DNA from: Terrimicrobiaceae bacterium
GTDB lineage: Bacteria > Verrucomicrobiota > Verrucomicrobiia > Chthoniobacterales > Terrimicrobiaceae
Assembly (NCBI GenBank): GCA_044342325.1
Contig: JBIIPZ010000008.1
Span: 24,208-88,207 of the forward strand
DNA: 64,000 bases
Direction: 5' to 3'
A program made the position numbers. This document shows positions 52,401 through 54,057 of the stretch, one piece after another (the first letter of the stretch is position 1; each line of letters opens with the position of its first letter).

Positions 52401-54057
52401 CTTCGGCCTTCATCCGTGCAGTCTCGGTATTGGAGTATCCGGTGACGCGCTCGTGCTGCGAATTCCATCTCACCATGCCTCCATCGGCGGACTGCAAATA
52501 CAGCATGCCGGGAGCGCTCTCAAAGATGGCGTCGGTGAGTTTTCTTTCGCCCAGCAGTTCGCTTTCACGAATCTTGAGTTGCTCCGCCAACTTGGCGGAG
52601 CGCAGCATATCCTCACTCAACTCGAGGCCCATCACGATCAGGATTCCAGCAAAAAACAAGCTCGCCACGATCGGCATGTCTATGAATCCCCAGAGGGCGA
52701 ACATCATTTGAAGCGAAAGTGCGAGGACAAAAAAGACCGCGCTCAAGCCGACGCGAATCGCGCCAGGCCTGTTCCCGCGCTGGGCGCTTCGCCATGTCGC
52801 ATCCACCAGATACGCTGCAAGCACCAGCAAGCTCATCTGCCCGATGATCGAGAGCGGGCTGGGGATGCCCTCCACAACTGTCACATCCGATCCCAGAAAA
52901 CGAATCCGCACCAACTCTTCGATGCTCGTGTAGTAGACCATCGGAGAAAAAATAAAATTCACCAGCAGGCTCAGCGTTCGCAGGCCGCAGACGGTCCATT
53001 CCAGCCATGGGCGTCCTGAACCAAGGTAGAAATGGATGAAACCGACGAGCGCCAGAGTAACAATCCAGCGCATGACATTATACCACTGCAGGGCATGCGC
53101 GTAAGATTCCATGTCCGTCTGCTGCATAGTCCAAAGCTCGCAAGCCGCCATGCCTGCCGTGGCGACTCCCATGATGCAGAACATGAGGCTGGCCATCTGG
53201 CGGCGCTGGCGCAGCCATGCAAACCCGTGCACGCCCGCCAGCGTGAGGGATGCGGCCGCCGTCATGGACCAGATGATCGTTACCCAGTTCACTTGCCGAG
53301 TCGGGCTTTGACAACGCGTCTTGCCTCCGCGATGAGCAGGCTGCACGCATCGATGCAGAGGAGGGGAATTTCTTTTTCTTTGATCGGAACAACTGGTGGC
53401 ACAGCATCGGAGGGGATCGGCCACTGGATACAGCGCAGGCAACCGGGAGTGCAAAGGGTGTCCACGATCCCTTGGGCCTCTTCGTCGGTGATCAGGCCTG
53501 TGACGCGATACATGCCGGTCTGGCGGCTCACCGTTTCCCGCAGCGGCGTGGCGATCTTTTCGTTGCGCAGCAGCGCCCGCCAGTTCGCCAGCGCGGCGGG
53601 GTAGAGGAGGTCCAACGCCAGATGCAAGTCGGCCAGCGAAGCGACACGCAGGCCCCAGCCGTGCTTCAGGTTGGGCCCAGTTTTGAGCGGACGGTAGTCG
53701 CCGGCATCGTCATGAAGCGCTATGGCTGCGGCATCATGCGGGTTGTCGAAAATTTCCAGATCTTCGCGCCCGGCATCCTCCGCGTGGCAGAGCAGAAATC
53801 CGTTGCCATCGGCTTTGAAAATAGCCTGACCGATTTTGTGGTATCCCTCGGCCACCGCCGCAGCCAGCAGGTCGCGGAGTGTTGAGGTGGCTGCGGATGT
53901 GAGAGTTGATGAATAATTCACAGGACGCGGCGAGATTGCCTTGCCATGGCCTGTTATTCAAGCCGCCATCTTTTACGGGGAAAAACAAAACAGCCGGGTC
54001 CTTGCGAACCCGGCTGAGTTGTTGAGTTTTGGCTTTGGGCCAGAGTGGCTGGACTTA

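Follow-up and report, generated by a model that had tools for sequence, protein, structure and literature searches.

What does the small DR2241-type Fe-S protein encoded at 53289–53921 do in a bacterium that seems to make its heme from siroheme? The gene lies on the minus strand of the window, a 64,000-nucleotide stretch of the genome of a Terrimicrobiaceae bacterium, G000 (this and similar gene and genome labels, G.., C.., f.. and g.., are sample labels). An initial annotation proposed a hybrid heme route from siroheme through AhbAB to ChdC, lacking AhbC, and named the DR2241 protein as the best candidate for the missing step. For many oxygen-breathing bacteria of this group, siroheme does seem to be the source of heme although the sole enzyme known for the next-to-last step is missing. 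The DR2241 protein is probably not the substitute for that enzyme, and we put at about even the chance that it acts one stage earlier, at siroheme formation.

A DR2241-family protein with four invariant cysteines

Translation of 53289–53921 gives a protein of 210 amino acids. Both annotated domains scored above cut-off in a Pfam scan: the DR2241 domain (PF18069; residues 30–115, 53577–53834, minus strand; E = 4.6e-21, 75.2 bits against a cut-off of 26.4) and the Fer4_23 domain (PF18009; residues 124–202, 53316–53552, minus strand; E = 1.2e-16, 61.3 bits against 27). They correspond to domains C and D of 2jh3. The protein aligned to residues 287–464 of that entry (phmmer, E = 9.4e-15), and its predicted structure (pLDDT 97.4) matched it with Z 21.5, rmsd 2.4 and 190 residues aligned. 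This C-terminal half of Deinococcus DR2241 was the sole match in both sequence and fold among solved structures; apart from it, the fold search returned nothing above Z 3.9, which bears neither way on function. The flagged protein is a true member of the DR2241 family, as annotated.

In an alignment of 122 relatives R77 and W89 of the first domain and R133, Q134, G136, C157, C161, C189 and C193 of the second are invariant. The four cysteines are presumed, from the alignment, to ligate a 4Fe-4S cluster, as the Pfam name of the Fer4_23 domain suggests and as is reported for 2jh3. The radical SAM family PF04055 did not match the 210-residue protein, whose sequence lacks the CxxxCxxC motif, and a family scan gave no match to TIGR01470 or the NAD-binding Rossmann (SirC/CysG-N) family. 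The adjacent genes, identified by Pfam and outside the system, are a PAS histidine kinase and LuxR-type response regulator downstream (50858–53286, minus strand) and groEL upstream (54055–55695, minus strand). This two-component pair and groEL are uninformative on function.

The putative chelatase partner

The CbiX-like partner (PRK02395, above cut-off) is encoded on another contig, at C77:19990–20787. It contains PF01903 twice, and His15, His139 and His202 align with histidines of chelatase structures, which makes it a putative class II chelatase for iron insertion into sirohydrochlorin. According to PMC4063343, a CbiX can do the work of a siroheme ferrochelatase: with no more than a methyltransferase present, it rescued a cysG mutant. 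A precedent for a 4Fe-4S centre on CbiX is given by the title of a reference cited in PMC7242693, and the CbiX paralogue HVO_1128 is predicted in PMC8305020 to be the siroheme ferrochelatase of haloarchaea. DR2241 itself is listed in PMC1274311 only as a predicted cobaltochelatase.

The G000 system shares with DR2241 of Deinococcus radiodurans (2jh3; PRK02395/COG2138) both C-terminal domains, the fold, the four cysteines and the CbiX-like partner. It differs in having two unlinked genes instead of one fusion, and its chelatase half retains the GHG and His202 of the second domain, which is degenerate in 2jh3. With the class II sirohydrochlorin ferrochelatases SirB/CbiX (Paracoccus CbiX, 4ccs; CbiXL with a 4Fe-4S centre) it has in common two CbiX domains, conserved histidines, clusters with sirA and reductase, and an attached Fe-S site. 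In the DR2241 system that site is a separate two-domain fold of 200 amino acids, whereas in SirB/CbiX systems it is a short C-terminal motif.

Heme genes of G000 and its family

The fused AhbAB (C54:6606–7703), ChdC (C70:80018–80836) and the CbiX-like protein were all recovered at the off-window positions first reported. AhbAB contains PF17805 twice and falls below the NCBIfam AhbA and AhbB cut-offs; ChdC matches PF06778 (E = 2e-47) and scores 245.8 bits against a cut-off of 253. Residues Y168, K172, Trp180 and H195 of ChdC are conserved in the alignment, with Y168, K172 and H195 invariant; the tyrosine and lysine are the catalytic residues and the histidine the proximal one. G000 also encodes SirA (PF00590, E = 4e-47, on C38), HemA, HemC, HemB and a sulfite reductase. 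The reported absence of HemE, ferrochelatase, AhbC and AhbD agrees with our searches of this genome: URO-D (HemE) was not found, HemE, HemY, two ferrochelatases and SirC gave no tblastn match, TIGR01470 gave one weak match inside hemA, and AhbC and AhbD queries matched weakly (tblastn, E > 1e-7). We read the ten radical SAM matches in G000 as MoaA, MiaB, HemW, RimO, BioB, LipA, QueE, RlmN, KamA-like and ThiH.

The AhbC gap is not provable from G000 alone, because the assembly is 86.29% complete and no sampled family member has the same pattern. The statement that close relatives are alike did not survive: the pattern was repeated by none of the six sampled genomes of the family. Four have HemE (G087 and G135, and from the genus of G000 itself G063 and G075, which are 100% and 98% complete and lack AhbAB and ChdC), and two, G093 and G129, have AhbAB with an adjacent AhbC-like/AhbD-like pair, classified by models in G093. 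For G000 only, it is a rather unlikely possibility that an ahbC–ahbD pair exists and was lost from the assembly. Its incompleteness and the pair carried by both AhbAB-containing family members argue for such a loss; 11 other AhbAB-containing genomes of the order without AhbC, and the earlier count of no AhbC in five close relatives, argue against it.

A siroheme route without AhbC in the class

At class level the evidence supports a siroheme–AhbAB–ChdC route that lacks AhbC; single-contig genomes and G030 make the strongest case. The sample comprised 151 genomes, 150 at a completeness of at least 90% plus G000, with AhbC-like genes called at E 1e-40; the genomes are related and not independent, and genes can be overlooked in a loose first search, for which reason the class counts are descriptions and not tests. 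AhbAB was present in 83 of the 151, and 32 of these gave no AhbC-like match. All 32 have ChdC and 30 lack HemE, which was found in two of the 31 other than G000; eight are single-contig genomes (G030, G037, G039, G046, G055, G068, G080 and G086). An AhbC-like gene is present in the remaining 51 AhbAB genomes; NirJ1/AhbC models gave the highest scores for the copies scanned, though short of the curated cut-offs, and these copies often adjoin an AhbD-like gene. An AhbC-like gene occurs in all 30 AhbAB genomes without ChdC.

The closed genome G030 (915,884 bases) carries hemA–hemC–sirA/hemD, hemB, the CbiX half, DR2241, AhbAB and ChdC, together with a heme-copper oxidase and heme A synthase. Its SirA–HemD passes TIGR01469 with the SirA domain intact. 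Across the whole of G030 there was no match to sulfite reductase, HemE, HemY, ferrochelatase, SirC, AhbC or AhbD, and a motif scan revealed no extra radical SAM protein. Sulfite/nitrite reductase was absent from 10 of the 11 tested gap genomes of the order, so that siroheme has no evident use in them but heme. Some AhbC-independent step very probably exists. About 650 genes are common to the 0.9-Mb G030 and G000, which makes for a short candidate list, a partial one since Pfam annotation of G030 covers 141 of 622 listed proteins.

Genes of the route are observed in the class; the flux that we infer from them would run from HemA/L/B/C and the SirA–HemD fusion to precorrin-2, through the CbiX-type (PRK02395) chelatase to siroheme, through fused AhbAB to didecarboxysiroheme, by some other step in place of AhbC to coproheme, and by ChdC from coproheme to heme b. 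The Verrucomicrobiia route, new here, follows the siroheme-dependent pathway in a variant form, one of whose steps still lacks an explanation. It shares SirA and AhbAB with the AHB pathway (AhbAB, AhbC, AhbD), from which the G000 route differs in having neither AhbC nor AhbD, in ending with ChdC and in its fused AhbAB that falls below the NCBIfam cut-offs. With the coproporphyrin-dependent pathway (HemE, CgoX, CpfC, ChdC) it shares the last step by ChdC, whereas HemE, HemY and ferrochelatase were not found in G000 or G030.

The idea that AhbAB replaces HemE by acting on unmethylated porphyrins was rejected. G030 retains SirA without a siroheme reductase, and the G000-type AhbAB falls in one clade (53–62% identical) with the AhbAB enzymes of g15 and f11, where AhbC/AhbD-like genes go with them. 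The rejection is not absolute, as SirA is fused to HemD.

Distribution of DR2241

The co-occurrence counts of the initial annotation were reproduced in our sample of 151 genomes. DR2241 was found in 29 of the 32 genomes with AhbAB but no AhbC, against 10 of the 51 that have both, and in 39/41 genomes with the CbiX half and AhbAB, against 6/34 with the CbiX half but no AhbAB. All 45 class genomes with DR2241 carry the CbiX-like half. Among AhbAB genomes DR2241 occurs in 39 of 53 with ChdC and in none of 30 without it; 12 of the 14 genomes with AhbAB and ChdC but no DR2241 have SirC. The three AhbC-less AhbAB genomes without DR2241 are G058, G096 and G112, all assemblies of 95–96% completeness; a DR2241 profile search in these and in G042 and G136, run without a positive control, was empty.

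Six class genomes keep DR2241 without AhbAB, five of them with HemE. G063 and G075 hold it alongside a hemC–hemE–hemN–hemY–hemB block, and G072 (290 contigs) has DR2241 and ChdC without AhbAB, which was possibly lost to the assembly. The CbiX half occurs with sulfite/nitrite reductase and HemE, and with neither DR2241 nor SirC, in 28 class genomes. G098 has AhbAB, an AhbC-like gene and the CbiX half, with no DR2241 and no SirC, and the genus g15 has the AhbC route without DR2241.

That SirC never co-occurs with the two halves is true of the class, where DR2241 and the CbiX half were found in none of the 26 SirC-containing genomes, as expected if the bifunctional CysG-N replaces the chelatase. 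It is not true outside the class: SirC is present in 41 of 43 haloarchaea with DR2241 and in all four DR2241-containing MAGs labelled Salinivenus/Bacteroidetes, which have cbiX–DR2241 and SirC in a sulfite reductase cluster and neither AhbAB nor AhbC. Controls in D. radiodurans found the fusion, SirA and sulfite reductase, and no AhbAB or SirC, in line with the earlier remark that Deinococcus has DR2241 without AhbAB.

In Halobacteria, 98 of 111 genomes have DR2241, including all 60 with full-length AhbC (75 match AhbC at E 1e-40, the other 15 being shorter or weaker matches). Two AhbAB genes were present in 13 of the 15 tested Halobacteria with DR2241 but no AhbC match. The 13 genomes without DR2241 also lack AhbAB and any sulfite/nitrite reductase, and five AhbAB-less haloarchaea retain DR2241, all with HemE; among haloarchaea without AhbAB, sulfite/nitrite reductase thus occurs in 5/5 with DR2241 and 0/13 without it. 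The simplest rule is that DR2241 tracks the need for siroheme.

Gene neighbourhoods of DR2241

The two halves are indeed fused or adjacent in distant relatives, namely Deinococcus and haloarchaea. The initial annotation saw no gene-cluster link to heme genes; we found links to siroheme genes in Deinococcus, in haloarchaea and on a Halorussus plasmid that carries cbiX–DR2241–sirA. In both Deinococcus records (D. radiodurans and D. wulumuqiensis) the CbiX–DR2241 fusion overlaps sirA–hemD and diverges from sulfite reductase–cysC–cysH–sat. Four AhbAB-less haloarchaea, G207, G214, G248 and G262, have a reductase beside cbiX–DR2241–sirA. In the last three, sirC and the reductase come first; divergent from them run the fusion or pair, then sirA, a gene like anthranilate phosphoribosyltransferase and a ferredoxin. 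The G207 cluster is the same without sirC and with no ferredoxin match. Over 183 DR2241-centred loci (mostly haloarchaeal and not independent), sirA was present in eight and ahbAB or chdC in none, with a haloarchaeal control for the AhbAB query only (E 1e-44). The 80 metagenome loci examined yielded a single link to sirA and none to ahbAB or chdC. In five haloarchaeal genomes ahbC lies 7–9 kb from cbiX–DR2241, separated by genes with no relation to the pathway (cysS, a chemoreceptor); we read this as the synteny of one lineage and rejected it as a linkage.

Role of DR2241

The reading to which we give about an even chance is that DR2241 acts at siroheme formation as a detached Fe-S module of the CbiX-type chelatase, in the slot of SirB. 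Its fusion or adjacency to the chelatase, its clusters with sirA and reductase and its retention without AhbAB all point to a siroheme-stage role, and we count its persistence after the switch to HemE in G063 and G075 on the same side. The module would most likely be a one-electron carrier, or else a partner that binds the tetrapyrrole while iron is inserted and the product passed on. Its four-cysteine cluster may transfer single electrons and its invariant arginines may bind tetrapyrrole carboxylates, so that it would maintain the proper redox state of iron and macrocycle, or hand siroheme on. Such a module might be dispensable if siroheme feeds sulfite reductase alone and be kept if all heme passes via siroheme in air. 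The 28 class genomes with the CbiX half and a reductase imply that siroheme can be made there without DR2241, and G098 implies that a high siroheme flux is possible without it. Two more observations speak against a siroheme-stage role: DR2241 follows ChdC among AhbAB genomes (39/53 against 0/30), and an aldo-keto reductase gene that diverges from cbiX–DR2241 in family f3 (3/3) could tie DR2241 to the bypass of AhbC. The association with ChdC would suit an aerobic partner of that enzyme no less than an aerobic requirement at the step of the chelatase.

It is unlikely that DR2241 instead stands in for AhbC, by itself or with the aldo-keto reductase as its redox partner, and removes the two acetates of didecarboxysiroheme in air. 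In favour of that role, the three exceptions among the 32 AhbC-less AhbAB genomes are about what incompleteness would give, no AhbAB genome without ChdC has DR2241, and all 13 haloarchaea without DR2241 lack AhbAB too. Its co-occurrence with SirC in haloarchaea means that a dehydrogenase role is not needed there, and the anaerobic/aerobic pair AhbD/ChdC of H. volcanii invites a similar pair for AhbC. However, the four cysteines are kept without AhbAB in Deinococcus, five haloarchaea, the four Salinivenus-type MAGs and six class genomes, and they speak for a cluster that is fully ligated and transfers electrons, less for a catalytic site. Moreover, all 60 haloarchaea whose AhbC is full-length have DR2241, and it neighbours sirA in eight loci and ahbAB or chdC in none of 183. 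Gene context and retention in AhbAB-less genomes thus weigh against the original proposal that it is the best candidate for the AhbC step. The other role suggested for it, precorrin-2 oxidation, would make DR2241 an NAD-independent oxidase and CbiX plus DR2241 an analogue of the dehydrogenase–chelatase module of CysG. This fits Deinococcus, since SirC is missing from D. radiodurans alongside the fusion, SirA and sulfite reductase, as well as the G207 cluster without sirC and the exclusion of DR2241 from the 26 SirC-containing class genomes. It does not fit the three haloarchaeal clusters in which sirC stands beside the fusion, and a pure oxidase role is made less likely by these and by SirC in 41/43 DR2241-containing haloarchaea. 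Moreover, the 28 class genomes with a siroheme enzyme have neither DR2241 nor SirC, and the dehydrogenase was dispensable in the E. coli rescue of PMC4063343. We consider precorrin-2 oxidation quite improbable.

Candidates for the AhbC-independent step

A better lead than DR2241 for the AhbC step is an aldo-keto reductase; in three verrucomicrobial lineages its gene is found with heme genes. That a dedicated subfamily performs or assists the step is a tentative proposal, somewhat less likely than not, based on individually read loci. The sole copy in G030 (328540–329559) lies between chdC and ahbAB, 4 kb from ahbAB, and its 64% identical orthologue in G000 is at C36:16613–17617. In G032 the gene (47% identical, E = 1e-80) abuts chdC and is divergent from ahbAB, and in three of three f3 genomes (G020, G069 and G117) it diverges from cbiX–DR2241. 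Among the nearest Atlas clusters, the third consists mostly of Chloroflexota (0.97), which we treat as a lead only. On the other side, the 12 other f19/f44 loci that were read have no copy next to chdC, G032 also has AhbC, no match was found among plasmids at E 1e-40, and no aldo-keto reductase is known to cleave the C–C bond of the AhbC step. Neighbour clustering of 30 chdC/ahbAB loci recovered a ferredoxin and DciA alone at three or more genomes and did not pick up the aldo-keto reductase. Of 34 loci, 12 have a small ferredoxin near chdC, and almost all of these belong to the order of G000.

ChdC itself might remove the acetates before it decarboxylates the propionates, by peroxide and a tyrosine radical near rings A and B. 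The chemistry is speculative and we regard it as quite unlikely, since the extra activity would be needed in two distant ChdC clades; it would account for ChdC in all 32 AhbC-less AhbAB genomes, for chdC in 161 of 166 haloarchaea against ahbC in 107 (supplement of PMC8305020) and for the conserved Tyr168, Lys172, Trp180 and His195. A fourth, oxygen-tolerant heme route spanning Verrucomicrobiia, Chloroflexota and haloarchaea, with DR2241 directly in a module that removes the two angular acetates of didecarboxysiroheme without radical SAM chemistry, is likewise an unlikely reading. Such a module would consist of DR2241 and the aldo-keto reductase, perhaps joined by the ferredoxin encoded next to chdC.

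The haloarchaeal parallel

The nearest parallel is the haloarchaeal AhbAB plus PitA/ChdC route of Haloferax volcanii, which shares AhbAB, the CbiX2–DR2241 pair and ChdC with the G000 route. The latter is bacterial, has no SirC and has a ChdC without the ABM domain, and the linked aldo-keto reductase is known here from bacterial genomes only. Roughly one in three to one in two haloarchaea have no ahbC: Pfeiffer and Dyall-Smith list ahbC in 107 and chdC in 161 of 166 (PMC8305020), and 60 of our 111 have it at full length. Whether and how the ahbC-less haloarchaea make heme is stated as open in section S3.f of that supplement. Kosugi et al. assigned ChdC of H. volcanii to aerobic and AhbD to anaerobic conditions and left room for another route to coproheme (PMC5746218). 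Reviews give AhbC as the sole enzyme for its step (PMC10114771, PMC13564367 and PMC7242693). In a search that left subscription journals mostly outside, we found no paper giving DR2241 a function, describing the route in Verrucomicrobia or linking an aldo-keto reductase to siroheme decarboxylase.

The gap in print for haloarchaea is now seen in bacteria, in closed genomes that include the 0.9-Mb G030, and the short gene list puts the question left open in print within reach of experiment. Whichever protein acts, the step would be a tetrapyrrole C–C cleavage without the sole enzyme known for it. Siroheme synthesis would be the first functional placement that we found for the DR2241 domain. As to the haloarchaeal AhbC, whose best family, TIGR04347, is named 'pseudo-SAM', the notion of a dead enzyme was discarded: the CxxxCxxC motif is intact in 5/5 copies.

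Heme routes within and beyond the genus

Two genomes of the same genus as G000, the genome that contains the window, carry a hemC-hemE-hemN-hemY-hemB block (G063 and G075; loci L238 and L239). AhbAB and ChdC are absent from both, and the heme route is switched within this genus. In the same family, the HemE genomes G087 (L255) and G135, which are without AhbAB, hold an AhbC/NirJ1-like gene as an orphan. Many genomes of family f19, including G032 (L045, L047), have two AhbAB genes, one canonical and one of the G000 type; ChdC of a distant clade occurs in the same genomes, G032 among them.

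HemE was found in all 12 haloarchaea tested that are without AhbAB. At L240 (G151), L242 (G214) and L243 (G184), hemE and a ferrochelatase gene stand in place of AhbAB; hemY accompanies them in G151 and G184, and in G151 the block lies on a second replicon.

Companions and spread of the cbiX-DR2241 pair

Haloarchaeal siroheme clusters (L004, L218-L221, L265) combine cbiX-DR2241-sirA with an anthranilate-phosphoribosyltransferase-like gene, nearest to PRK07394, and most of them also contain a ferredoxin. The cbiX-DR2241 pair of Salinivenus-type MAGs (L113, L124, L133, L135) is 62-64% identical to a haloarchaeal DR2241 stretch, and this level of sequence identity suggests gene transfer.

Possible electron-transfer proteins and other genes

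A Fer4_13 ferredoxin gene is divergent from chdC in G000 (C70:79695-79922 = L002:5696-5923), and such a gene was found near chdC at 12 of 34 loci. The closed 0.9-Mb genome G030 encodes a CysJ-like FAD/NAD flavoprotein (L147:12729-14752) behind a short-chain dehydrogenase-like gene, retained though the sulfite reductase hemoprotein is absent; this flavoprotein might supply the ferredoxin with electrons. Its G000 orthologue is on contig C52.

On our reading, putative type III secretion export component genes also occur in G030 (L158:14398-16509 and L154:3-1115); some adjoin chdC, with others elsewhere in the genome. Within the window, we read 42788-47221 as genes for the small and large subunits of ribonucleotide reductase, the large subunit having, on our reading, a long N-terminal part.
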